A stretch of 64,000 bases of DNA from an uncultured Psychroserpens sp. (GCA_947489585.1 CANLEE010000001.1:364946-428945); one strand, 5' to 3'. Counted from the stretch's first letter, positions 31,165 to 55,352 are shown. Notes: generated from the sequence alone by a model not told the origin. Translations and numbers: made by a program.

Positions 31165-31500
31165 ATGTCAAAAACATATTACGATCCTGCAGACCTTAGA
31201 AAGTTTAGTAAAATCACAGAGTGGAGCGAAGAATTAGGAAATAAATTCTTTGACTACTACGGAAAAGTTTTTGAAGAAGGCGCCCTTACAGCTCGTGAAA
31301 AATCTCTTATTGCATTAGCTGTTGCACATACAGAACAATGTCCTTATTGCATTGATGCTTACACCAAAGATGGTTTACAAAGAGGTGTTACGAAAGAGGA
31401 AATGATGGAAGCCATTCATGTTGGTGCTGCTATAAAAAGCGGAGCCACCCTTGTACATGGTGTTCAGATGATGAATAAAGTGAATAAATTAGACGGTTAA
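31165..31500 (+). CDS. AhpD/CMD-like protein associated with arsenosugar radical SAM genes
   Basis: GALTAREKSLIALAVAH and QCPYCID motifs; immediately upstream of arsS. Confidence 0.88.
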   Translation: MSKTYYDPADLRKFSKITEWSEELGNKFFDYYGKVFEEGALTAREKSLIALAVAHTEQCPYCIDAYTKDGLQRGVTKEEMMEAIHVGAAIKSGATLVHGVQMMNKVNKLDG

Positions 31501-31506
31501 TAGTAG

Positions 31507-32571
31507 ATGGCAAAATTAAAGACCCAATCCTTACAAAAACAAGGAAGTGATTTAGCTCAAAGTAATCGACAACTCGAAATCTTATCTAACGGAATTTTCC
31601 AAAACGGAGAATTACCAACATTTAAGGCTAAAATTTCGGAAACGAGTCAGTTTCCGCTTAAAGCAAAAAAATTAGAAATCCTACAAATCAATGTTGGTTA
31701 TATGTGTAACCAAGTTTGTGAACATTGTCATGTTGATGCTGGTCCAGACCGAAAGGAAATCATGACGCGTGACACCATGAAACAGTGTTTAGAAGTGATT
31801 AAAAATTCTGGTGCGCATACCTTAGATTTAACTGGAGGCGCTCCAGAAATGAACCCTGATTTTAGATGGTTTGTTGAAGAAGCAGCCAAAGTTGGTATCC
31901 GAGATTTTATAGTACGCTCCAACTTAACAATTATTAGAGCCAACAAAAAATATTACGATTTACCTGAATTTTTTAAAAAACATAACGTTCATGTGGTAAG
32001 CTCAATGCCGCATTGGACGAGAGGAAAAACCGATAAGCAACGTGGTGACGGTGTTTTTGATAAATCTATAAAAGCTTTGCAAGAACTCAACGCGGTTGGC
32101 TATGGTATGCCAGATAGTGATTTGCGATTAGACTTAGTGTATAATCCGTCTGGAGCCTTTTTACCTGGAGACCAAATGTCTATGGAAAAAGATTTTAAAA
32201 AGGCATTGATGGAAGATTTCAATATCCAATTCCATAACCTATTTGCTATTACAAACTTACCAATTGCACGTTTTTTAGATTATTTAATCGCTTCTGAAAA
32301 CTATGAAGATTACATGTATCAATTAGTCGATGCATATAATCCTGCTGCAGTTGCCAATGTCATGTGTACAAATACGCTTTCGATTAGTTGGGATGGTTAT
32401 TTATTTGATTGTGATTTTAATCAGATGCTAGAACTACCTGTAAATAGTAAAGCCAAGCATATTTCAGAATTTAACGAAGAATTATTAGAAGGACGTAATA
32501 TCGTCATATCTCAACATTGCTATGGTTGCACAGCTGGTGCAGGAAGTAGTTGTCAAGGTGTTGTTGCTTAA
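31507..32571 (+). CDS. arsS: Arsenosugar biosynthesis radical SAM enzyme (Cys form, not a selenoprotein)
   Basis: CNQVCEHC, LTGGAPE, VRSNLT, LVYNP, CDFNQML, HCYGCTAGAGSSCQG; the last Cys is encoded by TGT. Confidence 0.9.
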   Translation: MAKLKTQSLQKQGSDLAQSNRQLEILSNGIFQNGELPTFKAKISETSQFPLKAKKLEILQINVGYMCNQVCEHCHVDAGPDRKEIMTRDTMKQCLEVIKNSGAHTLDLTGGAPEMNPDFRWFVEEAAKVGIRDFIVRSNLTIIRANKKYYDLPEFFKKHNVHVVSSMPHWTRGKTDKQRGDGVFDKSIKALQELNAVGYGMPDSDLRLDLVYNPSGAFLPGDQMSMEKDFKKALMEDFNIQFHNLFAITNLPIARFLDYLIASENYEDYMYQLVDAYNPAAVANVMCTNTLSISWDGYLFDCDFNQMLELPVNSKAKHISEFNEELLEGRNIVISQHCYGCTAGAGSSCQGVVA

Positions 32572-52489: not shown

Positions 52490-53976
52490 TCCTTCAAACA
52501 ATCATAATAGTCATATATACGATTGCTATCCTACTCATCTTTATGTATGCGTTAGCACAACTTAACCTGCTATACAATTACTTGTCTTCAAAGAAAACAA
52601 ATAAAGATTGTGAAACCTTTGATTTGACAAATCCAGACGAAGTTCCTTTGGTAACAATACAACTTCCTGTGTTTAACGAAATGTACGTTATGGAGCGCTT
52701 GTTAGATAATATTGCGCTTCTTGATTACCCGAAAGACAAATTAGAAATTCAAGTCTTAGATGACTCAACTGATGAAACTGTTGCAACAACTTTAGCTCAA
52801 ATAGAAAAACTTCAAGCTACAGGCCTTGATATCAAACATATTACTAGAACAGACAGAAGTGGATTTAAAGCAGGAGCACTTAAAGAAGGTTTGAAAATTG
52901 CTAAAGGCGAATTCATTGCCATTTTTGATGCCGATTTCCTTCCTAAGCCAAACTGGTTAAAACATACCATTCTTTATTTTAAAGATGCTGAAATTGGAGT
53001 TGTACAGACACGTTGGGGGCACATCAATAGAAATTATTCCATCTTGACCAAAATTCAAGCCTTTGCTTTAGATGCACATTTTACTTTAGAACAAGTAGGA
53101 CGAAATAGTAAAGGCCATTTTATCAATTTTAATGGTACTGCTGGTATATGGCGTAAAGCGTGCATTATTGACGCAGGAAATTGGGAAGGTGACACATTAA
53201 CCGAAGATTTAGATTTAAGTTATAGAGCACAACTAAAAAACTGGAAATTCAAATACTTAGAAGATGTTGAAACTCCTGCCGAATTACCAGTAGTGATAAG
53301 TGCTGCACGTTCTCAACAATTTCGTTGGAATAAAGGAGGCGCTGAAAATTTTAGAAAAATGCTTTGGCGCGTTGTTAAATCAAATAATATTTCTACCAAA
53401 ACGAAAATTCATGGGTTGTTGCATTTACTCAACAGTACCATGTTTTTAAACATCTTTATTGTTGCTGTATTGAGTATCCCTATGTTGTATATCAAAAATG
53501 AATATGCACATTTACGATTTTACTTTTACTTTATGAGTTTCTTCGTAATAAGTACAGTTATTTTCTTCGTTTGTTACTGGTTTATGTACAAACAAATTTA
53601 TGGCAGTGGATTTAAAAAATTTTTCGGCTATGTCGGTATGTTTTTTACATTCTTTTCAATAGCTATGGGTTTCTCATTACATAATTCTATTGCAGTTCTA
53701 GAAGGCCATGTTGGTAAACGCAGTGAATTTGTGCGTACACCAAAATTCAATATTAGTACCTTAAGAGATTCATGGAAAGGCAACAAATATCTTCGAAAAA
53801 AGTTATCACCTCATGTTATCATTGAAGGTATATTAATGCTTTATTTTGGTTTTGGATTGTACAGCGCTTTCATTGTTGGAGATCAAGGTGGTGACTTTGG
53901 ATTATTCCCATTTCATTTAATGCTATTCTTAGGGTTTGGCTATGTGTTTTTTAAATCTCTCAGTTCAAAAGTATAA
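52486..53976 (+). CDS. Processive GT2, cellulose-synthase-like (CslA/CslC-type motifs)
   Basis: QLPVFNE, GFKAGAL, IFDADF, VQTRW, FNGTAG, TEDLDL, QQFRW; several C-terminal TM helices. Confidence 0.88.
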   Translation: MILQTIIIVIYTIAILLIFMYALAQLNLLYNYLSSKKTNKDCETFDLTNPDEVPLVTIQLPVFNEMYVMERLLDNIALLDYPKDKLEIQVLDDSTDETVATTLAQIEKLQATGLDIKHITRTDRSGFKAGALKEGLKIAKGEFIAIFDADFLPKPNWLKHTILYFKDAEIGVVQTRWGHINRNYSILTKIQAFALDAHFTLEQVGRNSKGHFINFNGTAGIWRKACIIDAGNWEGDTLTEDLDLSYRAQLKNWKFKYLEDVETPAELPVVISAARSQQFRWNKGGAENFRKMLWRVVKSNNISTKTKIHGLLHLLNSTMFLNIFIVAVLSIPMLYIKNEYAHLRFYFYFMSFFVISTVIFFVCYWFMYKQIYGSGFKKFFGYVGMFFTFFSIAMGFSLHNSIAVLEGHVGKRSEFVRTPKFNISTLRDSWKGNKYLRKKLSPHVIIEGILMLYFGFGLYSAFIVGDQGGDFGLFPFHLMLFLGFGYVFFKSLSSKV

Positions 53977-55352
53977 TGCAGCTCTGGAAACTTTATAAAG
54001 TTCCTATATTGCTTACATTAGTTAGCTTTTTTCTCTATTGGTTTTTTGCTTATAATTTAATTAGAACAGATTACACAAAGCTTATTGTACTTTATTGTGC
54101 ACTTTGGTTAGTCTTTATTTTATTTCTAAAGTATGTCAAGAACAATATAAAACTCTTAACATATATTGCATTCTTGTTTAGAGCCGTTTTCATTTTAGCA
54201 ATTCCAAATTTATCACAAGACTTTTATCGTTTTATTTGGGATGGACGAATGCTTTTAGAAGGTCTCAATCCTTATCTATATACTCCTGAATCATTCATTC
54301 AAGCTAGAGGAGAAATGCCTGTAGCTCAAGCAAAAGAACTATATGCAGGAATGGGCCAACTTAATGGCAGTCATTTCACCAATTACCCCCCAATTAATCA
54401 ACTTTGTTTTATAATTGCTGGTTTATTTTCTGGTCATAACATTTTAGGTTCTGCTATTGTATTTCGACTTCTTATTATTGCTGCCGATTTCGGAACATTT
54501 TTCTTCGGAAAACGGTTATTGGAACGATTGAATATTCCTGTCAAAAATATATTCTGGTATATTCTCAACCCTTTTATTATCATTGAACTTACTGGAAACC
54601 TTCATTTCGAAGGTGTTATGATATTCTTCCTTGTTTGGAGTATGTATCTCTTGCATTCTGGAAAATGGAAATGGGCTGCTATAATTTTTGCGCTTTCTAT
54701 TTCAGTAAAATTAATACCTCTTCTATTTTTACCATTGTTATTTCAGTATTTTAAAAAGAAATCTTCTCATACTGTCAATGTTAAGACATTGATTTCTTTT
54801 TACGCTATTGTTGGAATCACAACCGCGCTTTTATTTGCACCTTTCTTTTCTTCTGAATTTGTAAACAACTATGCGCAAACTGTGGGATTATGGTTTCAAA
54901 ATTTTGAATTTAATGCCAGTATTTATTATATAACTCGTGAAATTGGTTATTGGTTTACAGGTTATAATGAAATTAAAATCATAGGTAAAATATTACCTGT
55001 TCTAGTGTTTTTGTTTGTAATAGGATTGGCATTTTCTCGAAGAACATTAGATACCAAAGCACTTATTATCAATATGCTTTTAGCATTTACAATCTACTTG
55101 TTTTTGAGCACAACTGTTCATCCATGGTATGTGGCAACACTTTTATTTTTAAGCATATTTACCAATTATAAATTTCCATTGGTTTGGAGTTTTGTGATCA
55201 TAATGAGTTATTTAGCTTACATCAATATTAATAAGATGGATAAGTCTGAAAACTTATGGATAATAGCTATAGAATATAGTGTTGTGTATTCCGTATTTAT
55301 TTGGGAAGTTTTTATAAAAAAAGCCAACTCAAAAGAGTTGGCTTCATCATAA
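53976..55352 (+). CDS. GT-C fold membrane glycosyltransferase (GT87/mannosyltransferase-like)
   Basis: LSQDFYRFIWDG, TNYPP, LNPFIIIELTGNLHFE, SVKLIP, FEFNAS, VHPWY. Confidence 0.82.
   Translation: MQLWKLYKVPILLTLVSFFLYWFFAYNLIRTDYTKLIVLYCALWLVFILFLKYVKNNIKLLTYIAFLFRAVFILAIPNLSQDFYRFIWDGRMLLEGLNPYLYTPESFIQARGEMPVAQAKELYAGMGQLNGSHFTNYPPINQLCFIIAGLFSGHNILGSAIVFRLLIIAADFGTFFFGKRLLERLNIPVKNIFWYILNPFIIIELTGNLHFEGVMIFFLVWSMYLLHSGKWKWAAIIFALSISVKLIPLLFLPLLFQYFKKKSSHTVNVKTLISFYAIVGITTALLFAPFFSSEFVNNYAQTVGLWFQNFEFNASIYYITREIGYWFTGYNEIKIIGKILPVLVFLFVIGLAFSRRTLDTKALIINMLLAFTIYLFLSTTVHPWYVATLLFLSIFTNYKFPLVWSFVIIMSYLAYININKMDKSENLWIIAIEYSVVYSVFIWEVFIKKANSKELASS
55321..55344 (-). terminator. Terminator for the 55518-55832 gene, inside the GT-C 3' end
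   Basis: AAGCCAACTC-AAAA-GAGTTGGCTT hairpin preceded by an A-run (U-tract on the minus strand). Confidence 0.65.

Follow-up and report, generated by a model that had tools for sequence, protein, structure and literature searches.

A gene cluster kept together with arsM and arsS across most marine Flavobacteriaceae contains candidate genes for the later stages of arsenosugar or arsenolipid synthesis in bacteria

In a 64,000-nucleotide stretch of DNA from an uncultured Psychroserpens sp. (GCA_947489585.1, CANLEE010000001.1:364946-428945; hereafter the window, in whose coordinates all positions are given), a gene cluster of about 24 kb (31165-55352) encodes ArsM, ArsS, two proteins that form an electron-transfer pair, three membrane sugar-transferases, and a number of exported proteins. 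This raises the question of whether the genes to the right of arsM and arsS belong to an arsenic pathway. An earlier note on this DNA had described a biosynthetic locus, not a resistance operon, and our analysis bears this out: each gene class that it named was found where it had been placed, and, as it had claimed, no ArsR, ArsB, Acr3, or ArsC domain was detected within 27-58 kb. In the whole genome, neither ArsB nor Acr3 scored above its cut-off. We divide the cluster into three modules: module A, the ArsS core; module B, a flavoprotein and a membrane Fe-S protein; and module C, consisting of glycosyltransferases (a DPM1-like GT2, a BcsA-like GT2, and a GT-C) and exported proteins (GH113, DUF547, Omp85-like, putative barrel, and MORN proteins).

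The core at 31.1-36.3 kb, encoded on the plus strand, corresponds to the arsenosugar set curated by NCBI: a peroxidase-like protein, ArsS, ArsM, an exported rhodanese, a DUF2064/TIGR04282 protein, and a purine nucleoside phosphorylase (PNP). The AhpD/CMD-type peroxidase-like protein (31165..31500; TIGR04169, 192.5 bits, cut-off 120) carries a CPYC motif, with CxxC at residues 59-62, and its gene accompanies ArsS in all rearranged genomes. ArsS (31507..32571; TIGR04167, 442 bits, cut-off 300; DUF3641) is a radical SAM enzyme with CX3CX2C at residues 67/71/74; the activity given for its family in work cited in PMC13598754 and PMC12159101 is the adenosylation of DMAs(III). An ArsS-linked DUF2064 paralog follows (32575..33252); it scores 104 bits against TIGR04282, under the cut-off of 134, covers only model positions 73-188, and adjoins or lies near the peroxidase-ArsS pair in G009, G026, G211, G153, G155, G051, G150, and G198. 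ArsM (33366..34334; NF038099, 573.5 bits, cut-off 400) is an As(III) SAM methyltransferase of the arsenosugar type, whose Cys48/143/195 align with Cys72/174/224 of CmArsM and which also has an N-terminal CC pair. This type of ArsM is restricted to ArsS-positive genomes of the family, occurring in 131 of 158 of these and in 0 of 43 ArsS-negative genomes; it is missing from the other 27. The rhodanese-domain protein (34361..34873; NF045521, 189 bits, cut-off 145) has its catalytic Cys98 in a CX4R active-site loop legible in the sequence. Beyond it lie the TIGR04282/DUF2064 protein (34873..35484; 222 bits, cut-off 134), which has a nucleotide-diphospho-sugar-transferase fold (PDB match 3cgx, E=2.7e-30) and whose gene adjoins that of PNP in every case, and the trimeric-type PNP itself (35477..36289; PRK08202, 339 bits). 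Asp233 of this PNP aligns with Asn243 of human PNP, the base-specificity position, and the residue at this adenine-specificity position is Asp in all 40 cluster-linked orthologs. The enzyme may simply be a housekeeping one, because the genome has no other PNP.

The catalytic cysteines of ArsM and ArsS in the pathway of Synechocystis sp. PCC 6803 are kept at the Psychroserpens locus, and the two opening reactions, in which arsenic is methylated to DMAs(III) and then adenosylated to DDMAA, are expected to run as in that pathway. All six families of the NCBI arsenosugar neighbourhood (TIGR04167, NF038099, TIGR04169, TIGR04282, TIGR04283, and NF045521) are present, at least five of them above cut-off, with the TIGR04283 gene set apart from the core at 42.3 kb. 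However, the known Synechocystis-type pathway ends at DDMAA, whereas this locus adds about six exported proteins, the GT2/GT2/GT-C trio, the Asp-type PNP, and the pair of flavoprotein and membrane Fe-S protein; for these additions, neither a curated family nor a paper was found.

Module B begins with an FAD/NAD(P)H flavoprotein of the ferredoxin-reductase type (48077..49381, plus strand; Pyr_redox_2, 177 bits), for which the top PDB match was 3lxd and ferredoxin and putidaredoxin reductases were also matched. It adjoins the gene for an 8-TM membrane ferredoxin (49384..50973, plus strand; Fer4 families, with a weak NapH/MauN match) in 63 of 63 loci. For the latter, the cysteine pattern and invariant columns support a pair of CX3C(G/P) motifs together with a 2x[4Fe-4S] domain at the C-terminus; its AF2 model was too poor for comparison. 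The two cysteine motifs on a polytopic domain and the two [4Fe-4S] motifs are shared with NapH/MauN/CcoG-type proteins, among which CcoG is a precedent for metal ion reduction. Unlike these, the protein has eight TM helices and reaches only 46 bits against TIGR02163 (cut-off 213), and its partner is a ferredoxin-reductase-type flavoprotein, not NapG or quinol.

The three glycosyltransferases of module C are also encoded on the plus strand. The soluble GT2 of the DPM1/AglJ type (51797..52489; PF00535, 73 bits; AglJ, 119 bits, cut-off 325) is a candidate polyprenyl-phosphate sugar synthase; it scores well under all curated equivalog cut-offs, its top PDB match and closest solved relative is GpgS (7e-10), and it occurs in 56 of 63 loci. 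In the same number of loci we found the membrane-integrated processive GT2 (52486..53976; Glyco_tranf_2_3, 79 bits), which has D, DxD, TED, and QQFRW motifs and BcsA as its top PDB match (4.5e-18). The GT-C enzyme (53976..55352; GT87/DUF2029-like; PF09594, 31 bits, cut-off 25) has about 11 TM helices, a weak MptB-like match, and no sequence match in the PDB, and is present in 49 of 63 loci.

Signal or lipoprotein peptides are legible in the sequences of the rhodanese, both DUF547 proteins, and the GH113, Omp85-like, 289-aa, and MORN proteins. The Omp85-like protein (43896..45158, minus strand) combines a POTRA domain (28 bits) with a barrel (BamA-like, 45 bits, under cut-off) and belongs to an accessory set, co-occurring with the 289-aa protein, DUF547b, and MORN. 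The GH113-family glycoside hydrolase (45222..46217, minus strand; PF22612, 145 bits) is a lipoprotein with the lipobox FASC, and in 55 of 63 loci its gene lies no more than 10 kb from that of the membrane ferredoxin. The 289-aa protein (46263..47132, minus strand) matched no family in Pfam or NCBIfam; its C-terminal ...RALF, ending in Phe, suggests that it is probably an outer-membrane barrel, and all 21 of its occurrences are alongside the Omp85-like protein and DUF547b. The last of these, a second exported DUF547 protein with a C-X4-C-P motif (47165..47872, minus strand; PF04784, 90 bits), gave a model with a pLDDT of 91.5 in AF2, for which Foldseek found nothing in the PDB. The MORN_2-repeat protein (50973..51800, plus strand; PF07661, 50 bits) is an accessory present in 22 of 63 loci.

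Between the core and these genes, the cluster is less uniform. The first DUF547 lipoprotein (41435..42334, plus strand; PF04784, 92 bits; lipobox LISC), which has an invariant Cys pair in its C-X4-C-P motif, is paired in 39 of 40 loci with the arsenosugar-associated GT2 TIGR04283 (42327..43115, plus strand; 224.5 bits, cut-off 182). The PiT (PHO4) phosphate/arsenate-type transporter (39384..40496, plus strand; PF01384, 229 bits) lies at this position in 3 of about 45 neighbourhoods (the Psychroserpens locus, G160, and G253) and in 4 of 63 loci; it is a rare accessory outside the conserved machinery, and arsenate import as part of the system is thus not supported. A lipid reading had likewise leaned on the membrane di-iron enzyme of the FA_hydroxylase superfamily (40560..41393, plus strand; PF04116, 93 bits; OlsE-like, 87 bits, well under cut-off). 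This is an optional member, also outside the conserved machinery, found in 22 of 63 loci and, overall, in between roughly a third and a half of the clusters. The earlier note did not mention a calcineurin-like metallophosphoesterase (43116..43853, minus strand; PF00149, 67 bits) or a cassette of ECF sigma, anti-sigma, and two LiaG-like genes (36341-39244). The former, in 19 of 63 loci, is an optional add-on and no part of the conserved machinery; the latter is a lineage-specific insertion confined to part of the genus and unrelated to the conserved machinery.

Co-occurrence and synteny statistics showed that the clustering is well above chance and that in most marine Flavobacteriaceae, and outside the family too, the cluster genes stay side by side. 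In 201 genomes of the family, the counts for both ArsS and the membrane ferredoxin, ArsS only, ferredoxin only, and neither were 147/11/4/39 (Fisher p=5.5e-27); the corresponding counts were 3/0/1/20 (p=0.002) in other families of the order and 39/73/11/178 (p=1.4e-10) in the phylum, all p values being uncorrected for kinship. At least 60 genera carry both genes at a distance of 4-27 kb from each other. The ferredoxin block is also gone from 39 of the 43 ArsS-negative family genomes, and in genus g193, one species has both ArsS and ferredoxin and 11 species have neither. G070 and G105 have minimal single-strand operons (perox-ArsS-DUF2064-PNP-flavoprotein-ferredoxin-GT2-GT2-GT-C), and G339, of another order, has the complete gene set. 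In 17 genera, only perox-ArsS has been relocated, and ArsM is still 5-16 kb from the ferredoxin. The right-hand genes are thus tied to arsS and arsM in evolution; the independent assortment that the earlier note had named as evidence to the contrary did not occur. Of 112 ArsS-positive genomes in the phylum, 73 lack modules B and C, and in other classes ArsS there forms classic ArsS-DUF2064-TIGR04283 trios; modules B and C are therefore dispensable for ArsS chemistry as such. Conversely, 4 family and 11 phylum genomes retain B and C, often with DUF2064-PNP, in the absence of ArsS or ArsM (among them G202, G164, G047, G429, and G061).

One conserved multi-operon system around the arsenosugar pathway, its three modules acting as proposed below, has in our judgment an about even chance of being correct. 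It is fairly unlikely that the arsenic pathway consists of A and B only, with the flavoprotein and ferredoxin serving ArsS/ArsM chemistry, for instance by reducing DMAs(V)/MAs(V) or by supplying reductant, while C with the GH113, Omp85-like, and exported proteins is a separate, merely co-regulated or adjacent system for synthase-dependent secretion of an arsenic-free beta-glycan (mannan-like). Five genomes of another class do have compact perox-ArsS-DUF2064-flavoprotein-ferredoxin operons with no glycosyltransferase nearby, G173 and G254 have A and C without B, and the BcsA-like motifs, GH113, and an outer-membrane protein together resemble a self-sufficient exopolysaccharide machine. However, B runs directly into C, with start codons overlapping stop codons, at the Psychroserpens locus and in 56 of 63 loci; C remains with DUF2064-PNP-ArsM after ArsS has relocated; and ArsM lies directly 3' of the BcsA-like GT2 in G053, as C lies directly after PNP in G070 and G105.

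The most constant set over all variants is DUF2064-PNP with GT2-GT2-GT-C, which could point to a conserved core for glycosylation with a nucleoside-derived pentose, an envelope decoration of the ribofuranose/5-deoxyribose type; ArsS and ArsM would then be an addition through which, in most lineages, an analogue carrying arsenic gains entry to this pathway. The set is intact in G202, G164, G047, and G005, which have neither ArsS nor ArsM, and the 27 ArsS-positive genomes without arsenosugar-type ArsM fit as well. Nevertheless, the loss of the ferredoxin block in ArsS-negative family genomes speaks against this explanation, as does the frameshifted ferredoxin gene of G005, the only member of the window's own genus without ArsS and ArsM, and DUF2064 and TIGR04283 accompany ArsS throughout the phylum; we consider it quite unlikely. 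Very improbable is that the right-hand genes are unrelated to arsenic and sit where they do because a stable part of the Flavobacteriaceae chromosome has been inherited with its gene order. The housekeeping gene rluB neighbours the cluster in 15 of 63 loci, so part of the synteny is inherited without shared function, and xdhC on the left flank is syntenic within the genus. Yet the left-flank genes are found in none of the 63 loci, the two cluster parts co-occur on separate contigs in other families (G048, G051, and G053), genes are adjacent in other classes despite different gene orders, and loss is correlated in the family and in g193. The comparative data argue strongly against inherited synteny.

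As the best reading of these sequences, an arsenoribose from ArsM, ArsS, and the Asp-type PNP may pass via a lipid carrier to an envelope glycan or lipid, a link for which our literature search found no paper. In the cytoplasm, ArsM would methylate As(III) to DMAs(III) and ArsS would add the 5'-deoxyadenosyl group of SAM to give 5'-deoxy-5'-dimethylarsinoyl-adenosine, reactions demonstrated for both families and predicted here. PNP would remove adenine by phosphorolysis, yielding 5-deoxy-5-dimethylarsinoyl-ribose-1-phosphate, which the DUF2064/TIGR04282 protein may activate or pass on; TIGR04283 could make small ribosides. The DPM1-like GT2 would load the sugar onto polyprenyl phosphate, and on the periplasmic side of the inner membrane the GT-C would transfer it to a beta-glycan from the BcsA-like synthase or to a lipid. 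A small DPM1-like GT2 likewise precedes a multi-spanning GT-C in ArnC/ArnT, in GtrB/Gtr-type GT-C systems, and in the mycobacterial decaprenyl-P-ribose/arabinose pathway with its GT-C arabinosyltransferases, to whose DPR/DPA a pentofuranose donor here would be similar. Such pairing is the usual arrangement where a lipid-linked donor supplies the sugar for an acceptor on the periplasmic side. In contrast to these pairs, no flippase gene was seen with the DPM1-like GT2, which has no TM segment and scores far under the ArnC, AglJ, and PpgS models. With BcsA-BcsZ-BcsC and PgaC the locus shares a membrane GT2 bearing the motifs D, DxD, TED, and QxxRW, and as in Bcs-type systems it encodes a periplasmic glycoside hydrolase (GH113, not GH8) and an outer-membrane protein; it differs in lacking a PilZ or c-di-GMP domain as well as a TPR porin, and its outer-membrane partner, the Omp85-like protein with the 289-aa barrel candidate, is missing from about two-thirds of clusters. 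GH113 may trim the glycan, and the Omp85-like, barrel, DUF547, and MORN proteins may handle it. In module B, electrons would flow from NAD(P)H through the flavoprotein to the membrane 2x[4Fe-4S] protein and be delivered at the membrane; speculatively, its likeliest roles are to keep the arsenical or exported Cys proteins (rhodanese and the C-X4-C-P of DUF547) reduced or, in strains without ArsM, to reduce DMAs(V). Because the cluster is conserved so widely, its right-hand genes are candidates for the steps by which bacteria complete arsenosugar or arsenolipid synthesis.

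The ORF map, together with the Pfam and NCBIfam scans, confirmed all the gene classes that the earlier note had placed in the cluster (31165-55352). The + strand first carries an NCBI-curated arsenosugar neighbourhood (31165-36289), which contains a TIGR04169 peroxidase-like protein (31165-31500; "perox" in the gene orders given here), ArsS, a partial DUF2064 paralog, ArsM, a rhodanese, a TIGR04282 protein, and PNP. A cassette on the − strand (36341-39244), encoding an ECF sigma factor, a zf-HC2/HEAT anti-sigma factor, and two exported LiaG/DUF4097-like proteins, is inserted between PNP and PiT. 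PiT opens a + strand block (39384-43115) that continues with FA_hydroxylase, DUF547, and TIGR04283, followed on the − strand (43116-47872) by a metallophosphoesterase, an Omp85-like protein, GH113, a 289-aa protein without a family, and another DUF547 protein. The right-hand operon (48077-55352, + strand) consists of tightly overlapping genes for a flavoprotein, a membrane 2x[4Fe-4S] protein (49384-50973; the membrane ferredoxin), a MORN protein, a DPM1-like GT2, a BcsA-like GT2 with a QxxRW motif, and a GT-C. Signal or lipoprotein peptides were read from the sequences of the rhodanese, both DUF547 proteins, GH113, the Omp85-like protein, the 289-aa protein, and MORN. A strong hairpin (55320-55345) overlaps the 3′ end of the GT-C gene. 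The promoter and terminator scan gave chance-level output, the method being ill-suited to Bacteroidota promoters.

Judged by their model scores, ArsS, ArsM, TIGR04169, TIGR04282, TIGR04283, and the rhodanese (NF045521) are members of the known arsenosugar neighbourhood. ArsS scored 442.3 bits against TIGR04167 (cut-off 300) and 185.7 bits in its C-terminal DUF3641 domain, and its radical SAM motif CX3CX2C is formed by Cys67, Cys71, and Cys74. ArsM scored 573.5 bits against NF038099 (cut-off 400); its Cys48, Cys143, and Cys195 align to the As(III)-binding Cys72, Cys174, and Cys224 of CmArsM, and the N-terminal CC pair is also kept. The peroxidase-like protein has a CPYC motif. The TIGR04282 protein (34873-35484) scored 222 bits (cut-off 134), and DUF2064 matched PDB 3cgx, a putative nucleotide-diphospho-sugar transferase; the second DUF2064 protein (32575-33252) scored 104, below 134, and is therefore not a TIGR04282 member by score. 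The TIGR04283 protein (42327-43115) scored 224.5 bits (cut-off 182), and its match to the model falls in two stretches, which would fit ~30-35 inserted residues around positions 55-90. PNP (35477-36289) is the sole PNP in the genome. Its Asp233 aligned with Asn243 of human PNP, the residue setting 6-oxo versus 6-amino purine preference, and Asp occupies this position in 40 of 40 cluster-linked orthologs.

In logic, the right-hand genes resemble a polyprenyl-P-sugar/GT-C modification pair, a synthase-dependent glycan system, and a NapH/CcoG-like membrane reductase, but they lie below the curated cut-offs of each. The flavoprotein was nearest to ferredoxin and putidaredoxin reductases in the PDB comparison. 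The membrane ferredoxin, whose AF2 model is poor (pLDDT 55.6), has two CX3C(G/P) and two ferredoxin (2x[4Fe-4S]) motifs that are invariant across classes, and it falls below the NapH/MauN/CcoG curated cut-off (TIGR02163, 46 bits vs 213). One subtype of this protein, found at locus L076 (10035-11936, genome G155) and in relatives (genomes G160, G163, G156, G221, G116, G076, G174, G165, and G134), has ~100 residues inserted behind residue ~320; the insertion seems to lie in a loop, and its sequence is reminiscent of a PA (protease-associated) domain. In a third subtype, the membrane part is just ~48% identical. The BcsA-like GT2 has the motifs DD92-93, DAD148-150, TED239-241, and QQFRW277-281 and 1+4 TM helices, and its nearest solved relative is BcsA (E=4.5e-18). 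When tested against PgaC, CelA, and NodC, it was outside the curated equivalogs, with best scores of 112 bits (PgaC cut-off 422) and 91 bits (CelA cut-off 699). The DPM1-like GT2, with GpgS as its nearest solved relative, scored 118.9 for AglJ (cut-off 325), 62 for DPM-like (375), and 59.6 for PpgS (370). GT-C scored 31.3 bits against GT87 (cut-off 25), has ~11 hydrophobic segments (criterion, ≥8 TM helices), and gave no match in a sequence search of the PDB. The two DUF547 proteins (41435-42334 and 47165-47872) share an invariant C-X4-C-P motif, and a confident DUF547 AF2 model (pLDDT 91.5) gave no Foldseek match against the PDB at E<0.9 (best E 0.97). In plants, DUF547 is found fused with a glutaredoxin domain (PMC13621322).

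The earlier note had named independent assortment of the right-hand genes and arsS/arsM as the result that would speak against a single system; co-occurrence was analyzed at the genus, family, order, and phylum levels, and no such assortment was seen. Within the genus, seven other species show synteny of the entire block, which proves little because the synteny extends into the flanks. The family sample comprised one genome per genus from 200 genera of Flavobacteriaceae, of which 157 (~78%) contained ArsS and 150 (~75%) the membrane ferredoxin. In the 2x2 table over 201 genomes, 147 had both, 11 ArsS only, 4 the ferredoxin only, and 39 neither (Fisher p=5.5e-27, ignoring phylogeny), and an arsenosugar-type ArsM was found in 131 of the 158 ArsS-positive genomes versus 0 of the 43 ArsS-negative genomes. 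The distance between ArsS and the ferredoxin was 4-27 kb on one contig in at least 60 genera. The consensus gene order, drawn from 32 of these linked genera, was perox-ArsS-(rhodanese)-DUF2064-PNP-ArsM-(PiT)-(hydroxylase)-DUF547-TIGR04283 on the + strand, then (phosphoesterase)-(Omp85-like)-GH113-(289 aa)-(DUF547) on the − strand, and then flavoprotein-ferredoxin-(MORN)-GT2-GT2-GT-C on the + strand. Two genomes (G070 and G105) have a minimal single-strand version, perox-ArsS-DUF2064-PNP-flavoprotein-ferredoxin-GT2-GT2-GT-C. Rearrangements are more telling evidence for one system. In genomes that have hundreds of kb between ArsS and the ferredoxin, the displaced part is the perox-ArsS pair alone, and DUF2064-PNP-ArsM-DUF547-TIGR04283-GH113 remains with the right-hand operon; in 17 genera whose ArsS has moved away, ArsM is still 5-16 kb from the ferredoxin.

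A scan of the genome collection with the ferredoxin alignment, in which the best 80 matches were all from Flavobacteriaceae, provided 63 named loci of this family, and genes within 10 kb of the ferredoxin gene were counted. The matches also point to Winogradskyella or a near relative as the genus of the window. The flavoprotein was present in all 63 loci, followed by the DPM1-like GT2 and the BcsA-like GT2 (56 each), GH113 (55), GT-C (49), TIGR04283 (41), DUF547 of the 41435 type (40), PNP (36), DUF2064 (31), ArsM (27, a count limited by the 10 kb flank), the hydroxylase (22), and the phosphoesterase (19). About one third of the loci, the window among them, carry an exported set whose members occur together: the Omp85-like protein, the 289-aa protein, the second DUF547, and MORN. 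None of the left-flank genes occurred in any of the 63 loci. Directly downstream of GT-C in the window is a 104-aa ORF on the − strand (55518-55832), which has no Pfam match, is 78-87% identical across genera, and was found in 18 of the 63 loci. Further downstream, rluB (59838-60716) follows the cluster in many genera and lies within 10 kb in 15 of the 63 loci; it is probably a hitch-hiking neighbour.

Other functions for the locus or its parts were also considered. The earlier note had held that the layout is not that of an ars resistance operon, and this was borne out: ArsR, ArsB/Acr3, and ArsC are all missing among the ORFs at 27-58 kb. The whole genome yielded no ArsB and no Acr3 scoring above the cut-off, and hence no classical pump for arsenite efflux. 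A set comprising arsR, DUF6428, and a GNAT+LMWPc (ArsN/ArsC-like) fusion is located on contig C5 at ~232 kb (locus L225), far from the window. The rhodanese was rejected as an Acr2-type arsenate reductase, since its loop is CX4R, the sulfurtransferase type, and not CX5R. PiT, present in only 4 of the 63 loci, was ruled out as a defining importer and is a rare accessory. Similarly, the ECF sigma/anti-sigma/LiaG-like cassette was rejected as the regulator of the system, being absent from all 63 loci and from most of the genus; it was seen only here and in two genomes of the same genus (G004 and G012), and is therefore a lineage-specific insertion.

The genes form three modules: A, perox-ArsS-DUF2064 (with TIGR04283, ArsM, PNP, and the rhodanese); B, the flavoprotein and the membrane Fe-S protein; and C, GT2/GT2/GT-C, usually with GH113. 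Module B is the bridge between the other two, adjoining A in loci that have no C close by and C in loci that lack A. Among 24 genomes from other families of the order, ArsS was found in three (G048, G051, and G053) and the ferredoxin in the same three plus a fourth. Each of the three has the two genes on separate contigs, which rules out inherited adjacency as the source of their co-occurrence; G053 has ArsM directly behind the BcsA-like GT2. For 301 genomes of the phylum, the ArsS/ferredoxin table was 39/73/11/178 (OR 8.6, p=1.4e-10, ignoring phylogeny). Compact perox-ArsS-DUF2064-flavoprotein-ferredoxin operons occur in five genomes of another class, the order flavoprotein-ferredoxin-perox-ArsS-GT2 was seen in one genome of the phylum survey, and in G339, a genome from another order, the set is complete and its genes are arranged differently. 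Classes without the ferredoxin have the classic (perox)-ArsS-DUF2064-TIGR04283 trio.

Natural losses were also found. Only one species of the genus (G005) is without ArsS; perox, ArsS, and ArsM are all missing from its locus, and its ferredoxin gene (locus L118, G005:C20, ~179.6-181.2 kb) has a one-base frameshift near codon 140, reflecting either a pseudogene or an error in assembly, whereas the other genes seem intact. In the genus g193, ArsS and the ferredoxin are both present in one species and both absent from the 11 other species listed. A few genomes keep modules B and C but no ArsS or ArsM, ArsS occurs without B and C in many lineages, and B is missing in G173 and G254, with Clp protease genes filling the gap between TIGR04283 and GT2 in G173. 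We consider one conserved system around the arsenosugar core to be well supported.

In the proposed pathway, ArsM would yield DMAs(III), the product of its family, and ArsS would convert it to 5'-deoxy-5'-dimethylarsinoyl-adenosine, as the characterised member of its family is described in PMC13598754 and PMC12159101 as adenosylating DMAs(III) in a redox-neutral reaction. The Asp-type PNP may then free adenine to give arsenoribose-1-phosphate, which DUF2064 would activate, and TIGR04283 and/or the DPM1-like GT2 could hand the sugar to a small acceptor or to polyprenyl phosphate. Outside the cytoplasm, GT-C would move the sugar onto the beta-glycan of the BcsA-like synthase or onto a lipid, and GH113 and the outer-membrane set would process and export the product. 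More speculatively, an NAD(P)H-flavoprotein-Fe-S chain might supply reducing power at the membrane to the arsenical, to exported Cys proteins (the rhodanese and the DUF547 C-X4-C-P proteins), or to the di-iron hydroxylase. That arsenic is placed on an envelope product is plausible, and we rate it somewhat below an even chance. Phytoplankton release DMA into seawater. A bolder and rather unlikely extension is that most marine Flavobacteriaceae genera make an As-bearing envelope glycoconjugate, with lipid-linked 5-deoxy-5-dimethylarsinoyl-ribofuranose as the GT-C donor and with the flavoprotein-Fe-S pair as a DMAs(V) reductase that would let ArsM-less strains use seawater DMA.

The main forms of organic arsenic in marine food webs are arsenosugars and arsenolipids, whose production is credited to algae and cyanobacteria. 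To our knowledge, ArsM and ArsS are the only biosynthetic enzymes known for these compounds. Our literature search found ArsS biochemistry and nothing on arsenosugars of Flavobacteriaceae, the context of TIGR04282/04283, or the function of DUF547, and the linkage of the arsenosugar core with the right-hand genes was not found described. With this system, bacterial DUF547 and a membrane Fe-S protein family that had not been characterised are placed in a functional context for the first time. If the bolder reading is true, genes would be assigned to an organoarsenic surface polymer or lipid for the first time, a lipid-linked donor of the pentofuranose type would be known beyond Corynebacterineae, and the flavoprotein-membrane Fe-S pair would be the first methylarsenate (DMAs(V)) reductase to be identified. 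The linked redox and glycosyltransferase block offers concrete candidate genes for the missing late steps, and hints at abundant heterotrophic bacteria as producers that have gone unrecognised, possibly of arsenic bound to the envelope.
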